From NCBI GenBank assembly GCA_026396065.1, contig JAPLXO010000004.1:18387-82386 (forward strand): a DNA stretch of 64,000 nucleotides. The letters are read 5' to 3'. The position numbers and the translations under genes were made by a program. This DNA is from Candidatus Nomurabacteria bacterium (GTDB lineage: Bacteria; Patescibacteriota; Minisyncoccia; Phycocordibacterales; UBA9973). Numbering within the stretch: the first letter of the stretch is position 1; each line of letters starts with the position of its first letter. The notes beneath the pieces were generated by a model. The model worked only from the letters and a program-made list of their open reading frames with translations, was not told the origin of the DNA and searched no databases. This document shows, in pieces, positions 3,655 to 30,205 of this stretch.

Positions 3655-3724
3655 AAAATTTAATAATTTGACCTATTTTTAATAATATTGTAATTATAAC
3701 CCCCCCCCACAAAAATGCAAGACA

Positions 3725-3743
3725 GCGGAGGGTTCCCCTCCGC
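3725..3743. repeat. REP palindrome (gcggaggg-ttc-ccctccgc), left flank of RAYT.
   Basis: 8-bp perfect GC stem 27 bp upstream of the RAYT start. It is the reverse complement of the hairpin at 4409-4431. Confidence 0.7.
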
Positions 3744-3769
3744 CCTAAACTCTGTTATACTAAATATAT

Positions 3770-4396
3770 ATGTCTACAAGAAAACAATCTTTTGCAATAA
3801 ATGAATTTTATCATCTATATAATAGAGGAACTGAAAAAAGAACAATATTCTTAGAAAAGAAAGATTATGAACATTTCTTGTTTTTAATGCATATTTGTAA
3901 TACGAGCAAAAGTATTGAATTAAGGAAAATTGGTAAAAACTTTGATCGCAAGGAAACTTTAGTTAATATCGGAGCGTACTGTTTAATGCCAAATCATTTT
4001 CATATTTTAGGTTACGAAAAAATAGAAGGTGGAATTTCTAAGTACATGCTTAAACTATTAACTGCATACACAATGTATTTTAATAAAAAATACAAACGAA
4101 CAGGAAAACTATACGAAGGAGTATTTAAATCAATTCATGTAAACACGGACCGTTACTTGAAATACCTTTATTCTTATATACACCTGAACCCAGCAAAATT
4201 AGTTGATAAAAATTGGAAAGAAAACAAAAAAAGAAATACTGCTGAGTTATTAAATTATGTTTTTAATTATAAATATTCTAGCTTAGAAGAGTATTTAAAT
4301 TTAAATTTTAATATAGTAAATCAAAATCCATTTCCAAATTATTTTGGAAAACTAAATGATCATAAAAAAGAACTTTTTGAATGGTTAGAAATTTAA
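3770..4396 (+). CDS. REP-associated tyrosine transposase (RAYT), IS200-like Y1 HUH family.
   Basis: 208 aa with the HUH motif LMPNHFHIL and the catalytic Tyr region YSYIHLNPAKLV typical of RAYT/TnpA_REP (PF01797 family). Flanked by inverted REP hairpins. Confidence 0.75.
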   Translation: MSTRKQSFAINEFYHLYNRGTEKRTIFLEKKDYEHFLFLMHICNTSKSIELRKIGKNFDRKETLVNIGAYCLMPNHFHILGYEKIEGGISKYMLKLLTAYTMYFNKKYKRTGKLYEGVFKSIHVNTDRYLKYLYSYIHLNPAKLVDKNWKENKKRNTAELLNYVFNYKYSSLEEYLNLNFNIVNQNPFPNYFGKLNDHKKELFEWLEI

Positions 4397-4408
4397 AAAT
4401 AACAACGA

Positions 4409-4431
4409 GGGCGGAGGGGAACCCTCCGCCC
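4409..4431. repeat. REP palindrome (gggcggaggg-gaa-ccctccgccc), right flank of RAYT, inverted relative to the left copy.
   Basis: 10-bp perfect GC stem 13 bp downstream of the RAYT stop. Confidence 0.7.
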
Positions 4432-4468
4432 TAGCTCGATTATAATTTTAGGCATATAATTAAAATCT

Positions 4469-5240: not shown

Positions 5241-5576
5241 ATGGCGGTAGCAGAAATACAAAACACTGCGACAATTATAAAATATTTGTCGTATGAAATT
5301 TGCCGAATAATTCGGCGTCTAACAAAATACAAAATAAAGGGAGATAAAACCCTAAAACCAGGAGAAATTTGTTTAAATGTTGAAAATCTTGGAGAAACAC
5401 AAGTTTGGATAAGGATAAACAATGGATCACCTGAAGAAAAAGAGGAAATAGTCGAAGAATTAATAGAAACAATAGGTAAACAATTTGGCCCAAAAGCTAC
5501 AATAGAACCTACTGTGAAAACTTTAACAATTTCAATCGATGGCCTAAAAAACAAGCCATCAAAAAAGAAAAATTAG
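5241..5576 (+). CDS. Hypothetical protein (111 aa).
   Basis: Protein-like composition, ATG start, followed by a hairpin plus T-run terminator at ~5594-5625. The overlapping minus-strand ORF 5183..5554 is low-complexity S/F-rich and was rejected. Confidence 0.5.
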   Translation: MAVAEIQNTATIIKYLSYEICRIIRRLTKYKIKGDKTLKPGEICLNVENLGETQVWIRINNGSPEEKEEIVEELIETIGKQFGPKATIEPTVKTLTISIDGLKNKPSKKKN

Positions 5577-15669: not shown

Positions 15670-15942
15670 ATGAATAAGCAAGATTTAGTTGAATTTGTAC
15701 ACGGCAAAATGGGTGGTACAAAGGTAGCAGCTGAAGAAATCGTAAGTGGAATGTTTGATGCAATCATCGGCACAATGAAAAAAGGTGGTGAAGTATCAAT
15801 CGCTGGCTTCGGAATCTTCTCTGTAAAACCTCGTGCAGCTAGAATGGCTCGTAATCCAAAAACTGGAGAACAAGTCAAAGTAGCAGCTACAAAGGTTCCA
15901 AAGTTTCGTGCATCAAAAGGTTTGAAAGACGCAGTTAAATAG
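15670..15942 (+). CDS. hup: HU family DNA-binding protein.
   Basis: 90 aa. MNKQDLV...GFGIFSVKPRAARMARNPKTGE, the classic HU arm. Confidence 0.9.
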   Translation: MNKQDLVEFVHGKMGGTKVAAEEIVSGMFDAIIGTMKKGGEVSIAGFGIFSVKPRAARMARNPKTGEQVKVAATKVPKFRASKGLKDAVK

Positions 15943-16107
15943 TATTTGTCTCGAGACAAAGTGTAAAAGCCCAAAGCGAAAGCGGAGGGCTTTTATGTTT
16001 TTGATATATGAAAGTCATTTGCAATTTATAAATAAACATGGTACAATATGTGTCGATATGGTTATCAAAATGGTAACAAATTGTATCTTTAACAAAAAAA
16101 ATAAAAA

Positions 16108-16968
16108 TTGGAAAATAAAAAAGAAGAATCAAAAAGCCTTACTAACGTAAGTGGCTCTCTTCCTAAATATCTCAAGGAAATAGAAAAGGAAGAAAAATTG
16201 ACAGTTGAGCAAGAAAATCAACTTTCAGAAGAAATCAGAAACGGGAGCGCTCTTTCGTTAGAAAAATTAATTAAATCAAACTTACGTTTAGTGAAAACGG
16301 TAGCAGATCAGTTTAAAAGACAAGGAATGTTATTGCAAGATTTAATTAATGAAGGCAACCTAGGCTTAATTGAGGCGGCAAAAAGCTTTGATGAAAGAAG
16401 GGGTTTTGTTTTTAAAGTGCACGCTACAAGGGAAATTAAAAAATCTATCCGTGATGCATTAATGAAAAAAACAAAAATCATTAGGTTACCGTTTAATGAA
16501 ATTACCTCAAAAAAACAAATTGAGGACACAAAAGAAAATTTTATTAAAGAATTCGGTTATGAGGCCAGCACTGAAGAGCTATCAGCTATCTTAGGAAAAA
16601 ATGAGGAAGATATATCTGATACGATGTATTTCTCACAGGAGACAATTTTAGCTGACTCCCCTATCGATGAAGAAAACACGTTACTGGACACCCTGTCAGA
16701 CACAGCAACTCCCACAGGAGAAACTTTTTTGATAGATGAATCATTAAAAAAAGAAATTGAGCGAGCACTCAAGAATCTTAAAAACCCACGCCAAGTCGAA
16801 GTTTTAAAATTATTTTTCGGCTTTGACGAAGGTATTAACTGGACGCTTGAATCAATTGGGTCAAAATTTAATCTGACTCGTGAATCAGCTAGGCAGATTA
16901 AAGAAAAGGCGATTAAACGCCTTAGAAAGCAACCAAACATACCGTTGCTAAAAAGCTATCTGGGATAA
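16108..16968 (+). CDS. RNA polymerase sigma factor, sigma-70 family.
   Basis: Region 2 (LIKSNLRLV...LINEGNLGLIEAAKSFDERRGFVF...ATREIKKSIRDAL) and region 4 HTH (IGSKFNLTRESARQIKEKAIKRLRK). TTG start in the track; start uncertain. Confidence 0.8.
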   Translation: MENKKEESKSLTNVSGSLPKYLKEIEKEEKLTVEQENQLSEEIRNGSALSLEKLIKSNLRLVKTVADQFKRQGMLLQDLINEGNLGLIEAAKSFDERRGFVFKVHATREIKKSIRDALMKKTKIIRLPFNEITSKKQIEDTKENFIKEFGYEASTEELSAILGKNEEDISDTMYFSQETILADSPIDEENTLLDTLSDTATPTGETFLIDESLKKEIERALKNLKNPRQVEVLKLFFGFDEGINWTLESIGSKFNLTRESARQIKEKAIKRLRKQPNIPLLKSYLG

Positions 16969-17166
16969 TTCCCAACAACTCCCCTCACCGTGAAAATGGT
17001 GTGGGGAGATTTTGTTTTTTGTGCGGGATAAGAGAGTCGGTCACTTATAAATTTCTACTGAAATTTTATGCGACCCCGGCTCGGCGCGTCCGCCTCCGCC
17101 TTTCTCCTCACTTCCCCATCACAAAACAAAATCGCCGAGGACATGCCTCGGCTCATTTGTTTTTTG

Positions 17167-17237
17167 TGCGGGATAAGAGAGTCGAACTCTTCACCACAGT
17201 TTGGAAAACTGTTGTTTTACCGATAAACTAATCCCGC
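17167..17237 (-). tRNA. tRNA-Gly (anticodon TCC), 71 nt.
   Basis: Cloverleaf by hand: acceptor GCGGGAT/ATCCCGC, anticodon stem ACAGT/ACTGT with loop TTTCCAA, T-arm AAGAG-TTCGACT-CTCTT. CCA not encoded. Confidence 0.8.
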
Positions 17238-17300
17238 AATAGTTATATATTAGCATTTTATTTGTAAAAAGCCAGATATTTTGACAAAGTATTAGATGGA

Positions 17301-17702
17301 TTGTTTAATATTGACTTTTGGATTAATGGGGTGTATAATATACACATGAATGAAAATATAAATTTAGAAACAAAACCTTTAATAACACGAAAAGAAAGAA
17401 TTTTAAAAGCTCAGCAAGCTGAGACATTTGAAGATATAGATCCTGAAACAAAAAAAGATATTTTAGAGATTGCAGAAAAAAATATAACAGGCACACTAAA
17501 ACCACTCAGTTTTACTAAATTTTATAAATTTTCAACATATAAAAATAAAGGTGATTACAAACCTTATATGGATACAATGATGGAATATGCAACTACAGAA
17601 TTTAAAGAAATACTAAAAGAAGAATTAGAAAAAATAGATACAAAATTTATTCCAGCAAAAAAATTAGTGGAACAGTACGAAAAAGAAAGCGATAAAAACT
17701 AA
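17301..17702 (+). CDS. Hypothetical protein (133 aa from TTG; 118 aa if the ATG at 17346 is used).
   Basis: Charged protein-like ORF. Terminator at 17706-17732 (atcccgcaattgcgggat plus T-run). Confidence 0.45.
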   Translation: MFNIDFWINGVYNIHMNENINLETKPLITRKERILKAQQAETFEDIDPETKKDILEIAEKNITGTLKPLSFTKFYKFSTYKNKGDYKPYMDTMMEYATTEFKEILKEELEKIDTKFIPAKKLVEQYEKESDKN

Positions 17703-17897
17703 ACTAAAAATCCCGCAATTGCGGGATTTTTAGTTTTAAAAGTCGGGCTGCTGGGAATCGGCTATTACATAGCCAGGTGCTTTTCTACCTCGCTACGCTC
17801 GTACAGAAAAGCCTTTCGATATCCCAATAAAAGCAAATCAATTTGCTTTCTCCAGCCCAAACAAAAACAAACAGGTTTTACCTGTTTGTTTTTTAGT

Positions 17898-17968
17898 TCG
17901 GGCTGCTGGGAATCGAACCCAGTCAACGTGTTCCCAAAACACGTGTACTACCGGTATACTACAGCCCG
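17898..17968 (-). tRNA. tRNA-Pro (anticodon TGG), 71 nt.
   Basis: Acceptor CGGGCTG/CAGCCCG, anticodon stem CGTGT/ACACG with loop TTTGGGA, T-arm CTGGG-TTCGATT-CCCAG. Confidence 0.8.
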
Positions 17969-18006
17969 TTACAAAACAAGCTTAACATATTTGAGCAAAA
18001 AAACAA

Positions 18007-18438
18007 TTATTTATTTAAATTATCTAAATAAGTAGAATAAATAGGATAAAATTTTTCTACTTCGTCTTTAAGTTTATTTAATTCAACTTCAAAATCTGGC
18101 GAATCAAAATCCATATTCCCTAGTTCACTCTCCTTCTGTATTAAAGGAGAAATTTGATTCCAAATTTCTTTATCAAAACCACGAGAACCGACACCAAATA
18201 AATTTATAATGAATTTTAAATTTTGAAATTTAGTTTGAATTGATTCGTTTGAATCATCAAGTTCTTTCAATTTTCCTGCAATTACCCTTTTCCAATTATT
18301 TTTTGTTTTAGTAGGATCTGTACTTTCTCCCCTATCAGAAGGTATTAAATCATCAGAAAGTTTTCCTATATGCTCGTTCATAGGTGTGCCTAAAAAATGA
18401 ACTGGGCCAGTATTTTTTTTGTTATTTTCTATAGACAC
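18007..18438 (-). CDS. Hypothetical protein (143 aa).
   Basis: ORF co-directional with yraN and 12 bp downstream of it. Confidence 0.45.
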   Translation of the reverse strand: MSIENNKKNTGPVHFLGTPMNEHIGKLSDDLIPSDRGESTDPTKTKNNWKRVIAGKLKELDDSNESIQTKFQNLKFIINLFGVGSRGFDKEIWNQISPLIQKESELGNMDFDSPDFEVELNKLKDEVEKFYPIYSTYLDNLNK

Positions 18439-18450
18439 AACAATATATTA

Positions 18451-18855
18451 CTACAAAATTACATCTCTGACCACTTTTACTCTAGCCTTCTTTGTTTTCA
18501 TGTCCATAAAGACAACAATCAGATCAAACTGCCATTCTACGTTCTCTGGAACTTTTTTAGCTATTAAATACGTCTGAATTGTCCTTGAGAGACGCTTTAG
18601 CTTCCAAGGGTGCATATTATCTTCTGGTTTATACTGATCTAATGTTTCACGTTTAACACTTAGATCTCGTGTCACAGCCTTAACCTCCACAAAATGTATC
18701 CGACTTCCCTCCTGTGCTACAATATCTATCTCACCATACTTTCGAGTATAGTTTCTATCTAGAATAGAAAAACCTTGTTTCACGAGAAACTTACAAGCAA
18801 TATTTTCTCCCATTTCCCCTATCTTCTGTGTTTCAGAAGTAAATACTTTAGGCAT
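18451..18855 (-). CDS. yraN: YraN family (UPF0102) predicted endonuclease.
   Basis: 134 aa. GEMGENIACKFLVKQGFSILDRNYTRKYGEIDIVAQEGSRIHFVEVKA matches the YraN signature. Confidence 0.75.
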   Translation of the reverse strand: MPKVFTSETQKIGEMGENIACKFLVKQGFSILDRNYTRKYGEIDIVAQEGSRIHFVEVKAVTRDLSVKRETLDQYKPEDNMHPWKLKRLSRTIQTYLIAKKVPENVEWQFDLIVVFMDMKTKKARVKVVRDVIL

Positions 18856-18914
18856 TACTATAATTATACTACTCTAATAAAAATATCAAAAATGTTTCAT
18901 GAATAACACCTTTG

Positions 18915-18936
18915 AAGTGTTTCACGTGAAACACTT
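18915..18936. promoter_or_regulatory. 22-bp perfect palindrome aagtgtttcacgtgaaacactt, ~60 bp upstream of the yraN operon start.
   Basis: Seen in sequence. A perfect DnaA-box consensus TTATCCACA also occurs at 19060-19068 in the same intergenic region. Confidence 0.4.
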
Positions 18937-19176
18937 TACTATAAAAAAGCTGTTTTTATGTCTTTTATATAAAATGTCTTTATAATATAAGCTAGAATGG
19001 AAATTAACTACTTAAATAAACAGATAAATATATGTCCTTTATACACAATACCCCCACAGTTATCCACAGTTTTAGATAAAATCCTTACAAAATAAGGAAT
19101 AAACAAAAGGACAACTTGCTAAGTTTTTGAATTGATTTCGTTGTGAATCCGAGCTGATTAGGCTAGTACTTAAATG

Positions 19177-19248
19177 TGCACCCGGAGGGATTCGAACCCC
19201 CAACAACTGCTTCGAAGGCAGGCATGATATCCATTTCACTACGGGTGC
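19177..19248 (-). tRNA. tRNA-Arg (anticodon TCG), 72 nt.
   Basis: Acceptor GCACCCG/CGGGTGC, anticodon loop CTTCGAA, T-arm GGGGG-TTCGAAT-CCCTC. There is one C·T mismatch at the top of the anticodon stem. Confidence 0.65.
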
Positions 19249-19430
19249 AGTAAATGTCTTATAAGTATAAGCTAAATAAAGAATTAAGTAAATCAATAAT
19301 TTTGCATTAGAAATAAAAAAGTATATAATACATGTATAAAATTTTATAAATTAGCCACGCGTTTATGGTTTAGTGATTTATCATGCCACCGAGCTACGTT
19401 TAGGTTTCAATATTAAGAGTTAAGATAAAA

Positions 19431-19501
19431 GCGGTTATGGTTTAGTGGTAGAACACGTCCTTGCCAAGGATGAGACGGGAGTTCGATTCTCCCTAGCCGC
19501 A
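19431..19501 (+). tRNA. tRNA-Gly (anticodon GCC), 71 nt.
   Basis: Acceptor GCGGTTA/TAGCCGC, anticodon stem CGTCC/GGATG with loop TTGCCAA, T-arm GGGAG-TTCGATT-CTCCC. Confidence 0.8.
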
Positions 19502-19521
19502 CACAAAGAAGAATTAGCAAA

Positions 19522-21039
19522 GTGGAAACACTTACAAAGAACTTAATAGGGAAAGTACCTGAAAAGGTTTTAAATATTTTAACTACTTTAGAAAAAGGAG
19601 GTTTTGAAGCGTACCTAGTCGGTGGATGTGTTAGAGACATGATCATCGGAAGGGAACCAAAAGACTGGGACATTACGACAAATGCGACCCCTGAGCAAAT
19701 AATACCTTTGTTTGAGAAAACTATCTATGAAAACAAGTTCGGGACAGTAGGAGTGTGTGTTATTCGTGAAACAACAGGGGAGGATGTTTCACAAGAAACC
19801 AAATACGACATAATTGAGGTGACACCTTATAGAATAGAAGGCTTATATAGCGATAAAAGACACCCAGACGAGGTTAAATTCAGTCAAAGGATAGAAGATG
19901 ACTTAAAAAGACGCGACTTCACTATAAACGCATTAGCCCTAAATTCTAAAGGACACCTAGTAGATCTATTTGAAGGTATAAAGGACATTCAAAATAAAAC
20001 TATCCGTACAGTAGGAGATGCAAAAGAAAGGTTTAATGAAGATGCTTTGCGATTAATTCGTGCTGTGAGGTTTTCCACAGAATTGGATTTCGTAATTTCT
20101 CACGAGACAATTTCTGCAATTGTGGAAAACTCTGCATTAATAAAAAATATTTCTTTTGAAAGAATTCGTGATGAATTTTCAAAAATAATTATGTCTAAAT
20201 ATCCGATGACAGGCATCGGTATGCTTTCAAAATTAAAATTGTTGCAACATATTATTCCTGAACTCGAAGAAGGAATTAATTGTGAACAAAAAGGCGAACA
20301 CATTTATGATGTCTTCGAACATATCTTGCACGCGCTCGGACACGCAGCAGATAAAAAAGAGCCTTTAGATATAAGGCTCTCTGCGCTCTTTCACGATATA
20401 GGGAAGCCACGCACCCGCAGATGGGACGGCACAAAAGCTGGAGGAAAAGGGAAGTACACTTTCTACGGACACGAAGTCGTCGGTGCACGAATGGTAAAAA
20501 AAATAATGGAGCGATTAAAATTCCCTGGAGATATTTCAGAGAAAGTAGAAAAATTAGTTCGCTATCATATGTTCTTCTCTGACACAGAAACGATTACACT
20601 TTCTGCTGTGCGCAGAGTAATTGTAAATGTGGGGAAAACTAATATTTGGGATTTAATGAAAGTTCGCGAATGTGACCGTGTCGGTATGAAGAAAAAAGAA
20701 GCTCCTTACAGACTTCGCAAATATCATGCAATGATCGAAGAATGCTTGCGTGATCCTATCTCTGTTTCACAATTAAAAATAGATGGTACTATTCTAATGA
20801 ATGAACTCGGTATAAAACCCGGTCCTAAAATGGGCTTTATTTTAAATGCTTTATTGGAAGAAGTCCTTGATGACCCGAGTAAAAATGTCCGTGAATACCT
20901 CGATGTCCGTGTGGCTAAATTAAATTCTCTATCGGACACAGACCTCAAAGCTCTCGGAGAAAAAGCAAAAGAAAAGAAAGAGGAACTCGAAGAAAAAGAA
21001 GTTTTGCAATTACACAAAAAACATGGTGTAACGAAATAA
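19522..21039 (+). CDS. cca: CCA-adding tRNA nucleotidyltransferase (PolyA-pol head domain plus HD domain).
   Basis: 505 aa. GGCVRDMIIGREPKDWDITT head-domain motif and the HD motif ALFHDIGKP. GTG start. Confidence 0.8.
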   Translation: METLTKNLIGKVPEKVLNILTTLEKGGFEAYLVGGCVRDMIIGREPKDWDITTNATPEQIIPLFEKTIYENKFGTVGVCVIRETTGEDVSQETKYDIIEVTPYRIEGLYSDKRHPDEVKFSQRIEDDLKRRDFTINALALNSKGHLVDLFEGIKDIQNKTIRTVGDAKERFNEDALRLIRAVRFSTELDFVISHETISAIVENSALIKNISFERIRDEFSKIIMSKYPMTGIGMLSKLKLLQHIIPELEEGINCEQKGEHIYDVFEHILHALGHAADKKEPLDIRLSALFHDIGKPRTRRWDGTKAGGKGKYTFYGHEVVGARMVKKIMERLKFPGDISEKVEKLVRYHMFFSDTETITLSAVRRVIVNVGKTNIWDLMKVRECDRVGMKKKEAPYRLRKYHAMIEECLRDPISVSQLKIDGTILMNELGIKPGPKMGFILNALLEEVLDDPSKNVREYLDVRVAKLNSLSDTDLKALGEKAKEKKEELEEKEVLQLHKKHGVTK

Positions 21040-21752: not shown

Positions 21753-21876
21753 TGCACTTGATGGGACTCGAACCCATACACCATGAATCTACACTACTTG
21801 TTTGGACCAAATAGAATAAACCAGGACTTACCCAGATCCTAATTCTGGAGCTCTACCAATTGTTAGCTACAAATGC
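21753..21876 (-). tRNA. Atypical tRNA-Leu(TAG)-like gene, 124 nt, with a ~54-nt insertion between the anticodon stem and the T-arm.
   Basis: By hand: acceptor GCATTTG/CAAGTGC (one G·U pair), D-arm, perfect anticodon stem CCAGA/TCTGG with loop ATTAGGA, canonical T-arm ATGGG-TTCGAGT-CCCAT. The 54 nt between them is far longer than a class II variable arm. Confidence 0.5.
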
Positions 21877-29257: not shown

Positions 29258-30205
29258 TTATTTTTTACTATGAAATTTCTTATGGACTTCGAGAAGTTGC
29301 TTGTCAGTCACGTGAGTATAAATTTGAGTAGTAGCGATATTGGAATGCCCTAGCATCATTTGCACACTCCGGATATCTGCACCATTTGAAAGTAAATCAG
29401 TGGCGAAGCAGTGCCTCACCACGTGCGGGGTAACTTTTTTTGAAATACCAGCCATCGTGGCATATTGTTTTACAATTCTTTCTATCGATCGGCGAGTGAG
29501 AGCTTTCGTATCGAAAACATCATCACCATTTTTATTTTTTGTTTTTTGTGTCACTTCTTTGCCGACTTGGATAAACAAAGCTTCACTCATATCTTTTCTT
29601 TTTGCTAAATACGCCTTCACTGCATTTCGTGCATCTTCGGAAATAAAAACCACCCGAACCTTTCCACCTTTTCCACGAATAGAATATTCATCTACACTCA
29701 AATCCAAATCACTAGTGAGAGAGCAAAGTTCTGACACACGAAGACCCGTAGAAAAAAGTAATTCGAGAATTGCTTTATCACGGAGAGATTTCAAATCATT
29801 ATCTTTCGGCGCATTTAATAATCTAGTAAGTTCAGCGGGGGAAATGAGGTCGAGGGATCGCTCTTGAACTTTGGCGAGCTCTATCTTGTCAGCATGGAGG
29901 GATGTGATATCTCTCTTTGCTAAGAATTTTAAAAATACACGAAGTGCTATCAAATAATAATTCTGAGTTTTTTTAGATAAAGTTTTTCCTGTCGCTCTAT
30001 TATTACCAGTAGACTGTCTATTCAGCCAGAGACGAAATTCACGAACAACTTGGTCGGTAATTTCTTTCGCATTTTGTATCTTTGTATATTCAAAAAACCG
30101 AGTGAGGTAGTGCCCATAATTTTCGACAGTTTTAATACTGGAACCTTTTTCAATTTCCAAATATTCTAAAAATTGTCTTTTTAAGTTTTCTATCTCGGAT
30201 GCCAT
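29258..30205 (-). CDS. xerC: Tyrosine site-specific recombinase, XerC/XerD family.
   Basis: 315 aa. N-terminal SAM-like domain. C-terminal catalytic R...HxxR...Y with VRHCFATDLL and LGHSNIATTQIYTHV. Confidence 0.8.
   Translation of the reverse strand: MASEIENLKRQFLEYLEIEKGSSIKTVENYGHYLTRFFEYTKIQNAKEITDQVVREFRLWLNRQSTGNNRATGKTLSKKTQNYYLIALRVFLKFLAKRDITSLHADKIELAKVQERSLDLISPAELTRLLNAPKDNDLKSLRDKAILELLFSTGLRVSELCSLTSDLDLSVDEYSIRGKGGKVRVVFISEDARNAVKAYLAKRKDMSEALFIQVGKEVTQKTKNKNGDDVFDTKALTRRSIERIVKQYATMAGISKKVTPHVVRHCFATDLLSNGADIRSVQMMLGHSNIATTQIYTHVTDKQLLEVHKKFHSKK

Follow-up and report, generated by a model that had tools for sequence, protein, structure and literature searches.

Small folded units with copies of tRNA tails behind tRNA genes in a Candidatus Nomurabacteria lineage

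The window analysed here is a stretch of 64,000 nt from the chromosome of a Candidatus Nomurabacteria bacterium (candidate phyla radiation, CPR/Patescibacteria) with a GC content of 34.1 %. Genes for RNase Y, PNPase, the CCA-adding enzyme, YraN, ComM, UvrD and KsgA mark it as bacterial chromosome; an origin as phage DNA was rejected, as blastn against INPHARED matched tRNAs only and the genes are bacterial housekeeping genes. The window contains a cluster of tRNA genes in the order Gly(TCC)-Pro(TGG)-Arg(TCG)-Gly(GCC), and the gene of the CCA-adding enzyme comes next. Behind the tRNA-Pro gene, and behind several tRNA genes of related genomes, lies a conserved structured unit of about 105-135 nt that carries two copies, one inverted and one direct, of the preceding tRNA's 3' end. 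The units at tRNA-Pro, tRNA-Arg and, in the relative L016, tRNA-Gly are one homologous family with a fixed layout. In the window, tRNA-Gly(TCC) is followed by an insert of the same geometry, which an earlier note on this DNA had regarded as a possible attachment-site (att) scar left by an integrated element.

Relatives were gathered via homologues of the CCA-adding enzyme, from 97 % down to 70 % identity, and the tRNA cluster is syntenic in them. The identity of the CCA enzyme to that of the window is 97 % for locus L006, 95 % for L001 and 70 % for L016. The sequences compared are metagenome assemblies throughout, and the sample comprises only about 12 units in 6 genomes. The features of the window between the sigma-70 gene and tRNA-Arg are the following; P1, P2 and P3 denote the hairpins of the unit, A5 a segment resembling the 5' strand of the acceptor stem, and MFE the minimum free energy.

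16979-17008, unstranded: terminator hairpin common to the sigma-70 gene (plus strand) and, ancestrally, tRNA-Gly (minus strand)
17011-17039, minus strand: first copy of the direct repeat, a displaced C56-A73 with 11 nt of trailer, followed by the ancestral flank, which is homologous to the tRNA-Gly flank of L001
17039-17075, minus strand: long hairpin GGTCGC...AGTA...GTGACC in the position of P3 (MFE fold); its final C is C56 of the displaced tRNA copy
17078-17100, minus strand: GC-rich hairpin GGC GGA GGCG GACG CGCC GA GCC in the position of P2 (MFE fold)
17098-17120, minus strand: degenerate inverted tRNA-Gly tail with AGGC, GATGGGGAAGTGAGGAGAAAGGC against the predicted GCGGGATAAGAGAGTCGAAAGGC (16/23; 51/5000 shuffles as good), directly 3' of TTTTGT
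17134-17152, unstranded: GC-rich hairpin GCCGAGG-CATGT-CCTCGGC between an A-run and a T-run, resembling a bidirectional intrinsic terminator (predicted on both strands); the first part of the insert
17156-17184, minus strand: copy of the direct repeat beside and within the tRNA, C56-A73 with 11 nt of trailer, CAAAAAACAAA
17166-17237, minus strand: tRNA-Gly(TCC), intact, no encoded CCA (ARAGORN; Rfam tRNA 64.1 bits at 17167-17237); tRNA and promoter about 96 % identical to L001
17743-17859, minus strand: Pro unit, a clear family member (134 bits, the unit being in the training set of the model); homologues in L022 and L023
17743-17760, minus strand: direct copy of C56-A73 in the Pro unit
17760-17774, minus strand: P3 of the Pro unit
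17779-17812, minus strand: P2 of the Pro unit
17815-17827, minus strand: inverted T-stem/T-loop of the Pro unit
17829-17850, minus strand: P1 of the Pro unit
17853-17859, minus strand: A5 of the Pro unit, TGGGCTG
17869-17887, unstranded: tRNA-Pro terminator hairpin, present in L001 too, though L001 is without the unit
17898-17968, minus strand: tRNA-Pro(TGG) (ARAGORN, Rfam)
19144-19176, minus strand: decayed remnant of an Arg unit, 33 nt, made up of the 3' end of P3 and a tRNA-Arg tail with mutations, bordered by tRNA-Arg on one side and the conserved flank CAACGAAATC on the other
19177-19248, minus strand: tRNA-Arg(TCG) (ARAGORN, Rfam)

The 29-nt sequence TTTGTTTTTTGTGCGGGATAAGAGAGTCG has exactly two copies in the 64 kb, at 17011-17039 and 17156-17184, none further at up to 3 mismatches, and 0 are expected by chance; the search of the window thus confirmed the exact direct repeat reported earlier. 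As tRNA-Gly(TCC) lies on the minus strand at 17166/7-17237, the second copy consists of the last 18 nt of the tRNA (C56-A73) and 11 nt of trailer, in agreement with the earlier note. The segment between the copies measures 116 bp (17040-17155) instead of 117 bp and is, as had been stated, GC-rich (52.6 % versus 34.1 % for the window). Its open reading frames (76 and 52 aa) are chance frames that extend into the antisense strand of the tRNA. A second copy of the segment was found neither in the window nor in 23 loci (blastn, nhmmer), and the comparison with phage records that had been proposed revealed no similarity.

The same arrangement, missed in the earlier note, is present at tRNA-Pro(TGG): an exact 18-nt copy of C56-A73 is located at 17743-17760, while the gene's own end occupies 17898-17915. 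All units are placed directly 3' of the tRNA gene or its terminator, in the orientation of the tRNA. Read in tRNA sense, a unit begins with A5 and P1, continues with the reverse complement of the 3' strand of the T-stem and of the T-loop, with AAGGC and P2 and with AC(C/U)UG and P3, the latter closed by a GUA loop, and ends with (C)GAnU, the 3' strands of T-stem and acceptor stem, and A73; a trailer follows, often with a terminator. The inverted copy corresponds to tRNA positions 54-72 (about 19 nt) and is usually split by P1. The direct copy covers positions 56-73 plus 0-11 nt of trailer in intact units, hence the appearance of a duplicated tRNA end. It is exact in the Pro unit and Gly insert of the window and in the Arg units of L006 and L022, and its boundary at C56 is identical in these four; it is degenerate or missing in the second Gly unit, the Pro unit and the Arg unit of L016, in the Gly unit of L013 and in the Pro unit of L023. 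Pro and Arg units are homologous over about 115 nt.

Each unit follows the sequence of its own tRNA. In 6 of 8 units, a 12-mer at unit position ~34-48 agrees in 9-12 of its 12 nt with the reverse complement of positions 54-65 of the cognate tRNA, a match reached by at most 4 of 2000 shuffles, with the significance overstated in this and the other shuffle controls because related sequences were used. The 12-mer follows the reverse complement of the 3' T-stem strand and not the tRNA's own 5' strand. The Arg unit of L016 reads GCAGA, where the tRNA has GTGGG as 5' strand and GCAGG as reverse complement of the 3' strand, and it shows the variant T-loop TTCAATT as AATTGAA; in the Arg unit of L006 the 5' strand GGGGG of the tRNA stands against GAGGT in the unit. 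It follows that the 5' half of the unit is the tRNA tail copied in inverted orientation rather than a duplicate of the tRNA's own 5' half.

The hairpins are conserved by compensation. P1 is 100 % paired in five units and 9 of its 9 pairs have changed on both sides, a value reached by 0 of 500 shuffles, and slid controls were 31-49 % paired. A comparison of five units taken from near-identical genomes showed 95-100 % pairing in P1, P2, P3 and the T-loop helix and double changes in 13 pairs; the acceptor-like closing helix is only 47 % paired. RNAalifold found 19 of 38 pairs compensated in three units. The home-made covariance model R2, trained on Pro and Arg units of the window clade only, recovered the Pro unit (49.7 bits, E 3e-11) and the first Gly unit (45.3 bits, E 6e-10) of L016, both outside the training clade, the E-values of this model and its companion R1 being rough. 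An R2 match at L006 3396-3497 was rejected as a false positive. Scans with Rfam 15 (cmscan) at gathering and permissive thresholds assigned no family to the units of the window and L016 and gave sub-threshold hairpin noise only; among these scans were no matches to known ribozymes, T-box, transfer-messenger RNA (tmRNA) or YrlA. Viral contigs scanned with three family signatures yielded nothing real, L021 being a chance match inside a GC-rich coding sequence, and literature searches revealed no description of such units. On the sequences at hand, this family of small folded tRNA-tail elements appears to be previously undescribed and specific to this lineage of CPR bacteria.

The units are present or absent between genomes with 95-97 % identical CCA enzymes. 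The Pro unit occurs in the window, L022 and L023 and is absent in L001; in L023 the 3' strand of the acceptor is decayed. The Arg unit occurs in L006 and L022, has left the 33-nt remnant in the window and is absent in L001, L007, L009 and L023. In L006 it forms a 93-nt insert within a 22-nt repeat starting at C56 of tRNA-Arg, with L001 and L007 representing the empty site; the remnant in the window is collinear with the 3' end of this unit and has the same conserved flank (8/5000 shuffles as good). L022 has both the Pro and the Arg unit. Its Pro unit (~5465-5505, minus strand) carries a truncated direct copy CGATTCCCAGCAG and then an extra mini T-arm and acceptor 3' strand CTGGGAGTCGAAGGAGATTCCCAGCAGCCCGA, resembling a nested or partly duplicated unit end. 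L016 carries units at tRNA-Pro, at tRNA-Gly(TCC), where two are stacked in tandem, and, in degenerate form, at tRNA-Arg, and L013 a degenerate unit behind tRNA-Gly. Units thus decay by deletion and mutation, and since they are also missing in close relatives they are dispensable.

At tRNA-Gly, the terminator hairpin of the sigma gene in L001 abuts the intact 3' end of the tRNA, an empty site. The homologous hairpin of the window adjoins the displaced copy at 17011-17039, the ancestral flank being kept, so that the window has ~145 extra bp, namely the 116 bp and one repeat. The insert is also absent from L022; the empty site that the earlier note had proposed to look for in relatives is found in both. 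The proposed att-site scar was thereby borne out in part: the extra DNA lies exactly at the tRNA-Gly 3' end, with a repeat, a regenerated tRNA and an empty site. Neither of the observations named beforehand as speaking against it was made, the repeat not being common at non-tRNA sites and the identical arrangement not occurring in relatives. Integrase and cargo are missing. Between the repeats there are only the 116 bp, and an integrase, phage, plasmid or integrative and conjugative element (ICE) gene or pseudogene was found neither there nor adjoining. The view of the 116 bp as a random remnant of a larger element is not supported: the layout recurs, as a structured unit that is conserved, at tRNA-Pro, at tRNA-Arg and in four other genomes, and the inverted tail copy held by the units is not expected from an attL/attR pair. 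The insert does not look like what erosion has left of a large island.

The Gly insert resembles the family in where it lies, in its boundary at C56 and in the terminator at its start; it also has two internal hairpins and a strongly stable fold (z-score -4.9). Its direct copy starts exactly at C56, directly 3' of the tRNA and in the same orientation, as in the family. A degenerate, putative module of inverted tail and AGGC stands at the expected place with 16 of 23 positions matching without gaps (51/5000 shuffles, p~0.01; 12 for a Pro-type and 13 for an Arg-type module). The split 12-mer was not significant (852/2000 shuffles), and the insert is without P1 and the ACYUG motif; its last hairpin has the loop AGUA, not the GUA signature of the family. 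Against its inclusion stand that it matched neither R1 nor, with filters off at E<=10, R2, and that the arm-to-arm complementarity (duplex energy) was no better than in shuffles (461/1000), because the insert is G-rich. The membership of the Gly insert therefore rests on its layout and one match of p~0.01. On balance it is probably a diverged, P1-less relative of the family, and a classical scar is kept as a minor rival for this insert alone.

We tentatively prefer, a little short of an even chance, to regard the units as dispensable, non-autonomous and probably mobile DNA elements that recombine at tRNA tails by means of a trans-acting enzyme. A unit would enter or leave by recombination within the segment from the T-loop to the tRNA gene's 3' end, with the recombinase supplied in trans, and the direct repeat would consist of the regenerated tRNA end and the displaced target fragment. 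Short-range template switching (PMC7202029) or gene conversion might keep the inverted arm in step with the sequence of the tRNA beside it. The single strand of tRNA sense is predicted to fold with the tRNA tail paired to its inverted copy. With P2 and P3 as its cap, this fold would replicate the duplex end of the tRNA gene as a hairpin or, in RNA, form an acceptor/T-stem-like minihelix.

Several results, besides the poor agreement of the Gly insert with the family models, weigh against this reading. A transposase, integrase or reverse transcriptase was found beside none of the units, and Pfam scans of 44 of the 53 window open reading frames of at least 120 aa detected no partner enzyme (transposase, reverse transcriptase, TnpB/IscB or extra integrase). 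The only candidates in the window are a Y1 transposase gene resembling a RAYT, i.e., a transposase associated with repetitive extragenic palindromic (REP) sequences, at a distance of 13 kb, and an Xer-like recombinase (29258-30205), whose gene is conserved beside rpsO in all relatives. The direct repeats measure 18, 19, 22 and 29 nt, unlike a target-site duplication of fixed length. In the window the Pro unit comes after a terminator found in L001 too, and simple insertion into the T-loop fails to explain this order. Clean empty sites could equally be explained by precise loss through the direct repeats, and compensated hairpins and matched arms can arise by quasipalindrome template switching without selection. 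A circular or excised form, or a copy away from a tRNA, was not seen among the ~12 units of the 6 assembled genomes.

The RAYT-like gene (IS200-like Y1, 208 aa, 3770-4396) lies between copies of a GC-rich palindrome, GGCGGAGGG..CCCTCCGCC, at 3717-3750 and 4401-4440, a REP/RAYT-like arrangement with two copies only in the window. A link of the units to this pair (3717-4440) was rejected, as the palindrome GGCGGAGGGGAACCCTCCGCC occurs only at 3717-3750 and 4401-4440 and the Gly insert shares just the 8-mer CCTCCGCC. A TnpB-omegaRNA-like organisation of scaffold and 3' guide was rejected as well: the guide would target the filled site too, and TnpB is absent. A primer site resembling a primer-binding site (PBS) was rejected because the complement of CCA is absent.

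Among the other explanations, the main rival is a functional small RNA, which is unlikely but has several features on its side. The unit would be expressed by terminator read-through or by processing of the tRNA transcript and form a minihelix with stems matching the cognate tRNA, P1 standing in place of the D and anticodon arms and P2 and P3 being inserted in the T-loop. It might mimic the tRNA top half and so offer RNase P, RNase Z, the CCA-adding enzyme, a synthetase or a tRNA-targeting toxin a decoy or substrate, or it might be antisense to the 3' third of the tRNA. The strand of tRNA sense folds better than its complement (summed MFE -317 versus -290 kcal/mol; 17 versus 11 G-U pairs), the wobbles of P1 and P3 are G-U in tRNA sense, without an A-C mismatch in either hairpin, and the unpaired AAGGC, AC(C/U)UG and GUA loop are kept across clades with otherwise unalignable intergenic DNA. 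The stems track lineage-specific tRNA sequence, e.g., CTCTT in the window versus CCCTT in L016, whose units even carry their own terminators; the tRNA genes here are all without CCA, and the cluster keeps its synteny with the gene of the CCA-adding enzyme. However, units begin 0-2 nt after a strong terminator and there is thus no room for a promoter, the closing helix is kept in some units only (47 % of cells paired), and pairing with its complement destroys the T-loop motif. The direct copy is lost in the second Gly and the Pro unit of L016, the Gly unit of L013 and the Pro unit of L023, and dispensability, as seen in close relatives and in decaying units, does not suit a function. In hypothetical read-through transcripts (window 17021-17237; L016 3505-3743) thermodynamic prediction pairs the 3' third of the tRNA with the inverted arm of the unit across the terminator, and the 5' acceptor strand of the tRNA with the direct copy, which may represent a domain-swapped alternative to the cloverleaf.

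Origin as a by-product of local replication is improbable: a fold-back or template switch at the tRNA terminator hairpin would copy the tail inverted and then direct, and quasipalindrome correction would keep arms and hairpins perfect, with neither mobility nor function. Quasipalindromes are known to mutate by template switching (PMC7202029). Tail, terminator and inverted tail do form one long quasipalindrome, in L016 ATCCCGCACAAA..TCACCC TATA GGGTGA..TTTGTGCGGGAT, and the inverted arm is complementary to the 3' strand by Watson-Crick rules also at positions where the tRNA has G-U; this leaves unexplained the conserved unpaired motifs and the homologous non-tRNA core (P1, AAGGC-P2, ACYUG, P3) shared behind Pro, Arg and Gly across clades. 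The classical att scar, in which a tyrosine-integrase element entered tRNA-Gly at the T-loop, regenerated the tRNA and later lost all but 116 bp, is very improbable, even though the 18-nt repeat of the tRNA 3' end from the T-loop with a regenerated gene and a displaced fragment is the hallmark of islands in tRNA genes (tDNA islands; PMC4383910), L001 has the empty site, the family models do not detect the Gly insert and the neighbourhood is a hotspot of gene turnover. An integrase or cargo remnant is missing, blast and nhmmer find no relative of the 116 bp, and the insert, which has a terminator of its own at the start, folds as one unit (z = -4.9). Two more tRNAs of the cluster bear structured inserts of similar size from a conserved family, a result that independent deletions to the same size would not give. 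It is hardly credible that the units are decayed tandem duplicates of the tRNA gene. They hold segments resembling the 5' acceptor strand and the 5' T-stem strand besides the 3' end, but the latter segment follows the reverse complement of the 3' T-stem strand and continues into the reverse complement of the T-loop; D and anticodon arms have left no trace, the Rfam tRNA model (E<=10) and ARAGORN match nothing in 17011-17155 or 17743-17862, and the units of different tRNAs have a non-tRNA core in common.

The tRNA 3' ends are clearly points of active recombination in this lineage. In all relatives the flanks diverge immediately 3' of the tRNA, and the genes nearby are hypervariable. The segment of tRNA-Arg and tRNA-Gly(GCC) (window 19144-19520; L022 6955-7990; L023 7794-8066) is inverted in L022, L023, L012 and L016, its orientation being the same in the window, L001, L006, L007, L009, L011 and L013. 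The breakpoints lie at ...GCAC|, exactly where each tRNA, or the direct copy of the Arg unit, ends. As the orientation differs among genomes with ~97 % identical CCA enzymes, the inversion looks recurrent. The orientation of tRNA-Gly(TCC) also flips between genomes. From HU to YraN (window 15670-18855) each relative has different genes. The sigma-70 gene of the window (16108-16968), whose product is identical to a protein of a Candidatus Nomurabacteria metagenome-assembled genome, is Bacteroidota-like (49-50 % identity); L001 has a sigma gene in the corresponding position, with only 44 % identity to it. None of the fetched loci contains a homologue of the 118-aa open reading frame at 17346-17702. 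Four genomes carry a second copy of the first 17-19 nt of tRNA-Gly(GCC), 40-76 nt upstream of the gene (window 19359-19376, L001 10045-10062, L009 6913-6930, L011 1145-1161); this partial copy of the 5' end is conserved in the clade. An operator-like palindrome, TGTTTCACGTGAAACA, conserved in relatives, is repeated several times, with variants, around YraN/tRNA-Arg and in the start of the CCA-enzyme gene (window 18642-18936 and 19757-19799; L001 9209-9672). In the window, tRNA-Leu(UAG) (21753-21876, minus strand) has an insertion of ~50 nt in the variable region and a total length of 124 nt; Rfam scores it as tRNA with 41.8 bits and ARAGORN misses it.

Among known systems, tDNA islands arise by tyrosine-integrase integration into tRNA genes, with attL and attR at the borders (Islander type; PMC4383910). 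The units share with them a regenerated intact tRNA, a displaced 3' fragment as direct repeat from the T-loop to the 3' end, and empty sites in relatives, but differ in having only 93-137 nt between the repeats, no integrase or cargo, an inverted tail and conserved hairpins. One core occurs behind three tRNAs with its arms altered to match each, which a fixed attP would not allow. Island-finding software will misread such units as att scars or partial tRNAs. Plant mitochondrial t-elements are tRNA-like processing elements (PMC1920247). These, the tRNA-like domain of tmRNA and viral tRNA-like structures resemble the units in acceptor/T-stem-like helices without an anticodon arm and as possible substrates of RNase P, RNase Z or the CCA-adding enzyme. 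In the units, by contrast, the stems copy one specific tRNA, the one next to the unit; the T-loop pairs with its complement, the closing helix has often degenerated, and Rfam gave no tRNA-like match. If expressed, they would be a new mimic RNA of the tRNA top half in organisms with poorly known tRNA processing.

MITEs (miniature inverted-repeat transposable elements) and REP/REPIN sequences, mobilised in trans, e.g., by the Y1 enzyme of RAYTs, are likewise small, non-coding and rich in hairpins, lie between convergent genes, are patchy in strains and have inverted terminal arms. The arms of the Pro, Arg and first L016 Gly units are inverted repeats, but neither a duplication of fixed length nor a related transposase was found; they copy the tail of the neighbouring tRNA and not a transposase recognition sequence, the duplication measures 18-29 nt, and the units stand strictly behind tRNAs. 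If real and mobile, the family would represent a small non-coding element with terminal arms re-tailored to each tRNA, for which we found no mechanism described for MITEs, REPs or integrative elements.

The closest parallels to the preferred reading are folded single-strand recombination sites, among them the attC sites of integrons. In the phage CTX-phi, the attP(+) hairpin is a folded single-strand site used by the host XerCD (PMC3442271, PMC4246890). The units differ from both in that no R/L core boxes or dif-like sequence were identified and that the target would be a tRNA gene end, not attI or dif; the likeness rests on size and shape of the palindrome. They agree in being imperfect palindromes, ~60-150 nt long, in which pairing of the arms would rebuild a duplex copy of the chromosomal target and the apical structure is extrahelical or variable, and in encoding no recombinase, with an Xer-type recombinase present in the genome (29258-30205). 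It is conceivable, though doubtful, that the units constitute a new class of tRNA-associated element, in which a folded replica of the tail serves as site for a host tyrosine recombinase, as a counterpart of attC and the CTX-phi attP, or a minihelix-mimic RNA acts on tRNA-processing or tRNA-targeting enzymes. A real and mobile family would give access to the question of why inversion and gene turnover concentrate at tRNA ends in streamlined CPR genomes, and use as a recombination site, if true, would also explain the inversions and the gene turnover at these ends.

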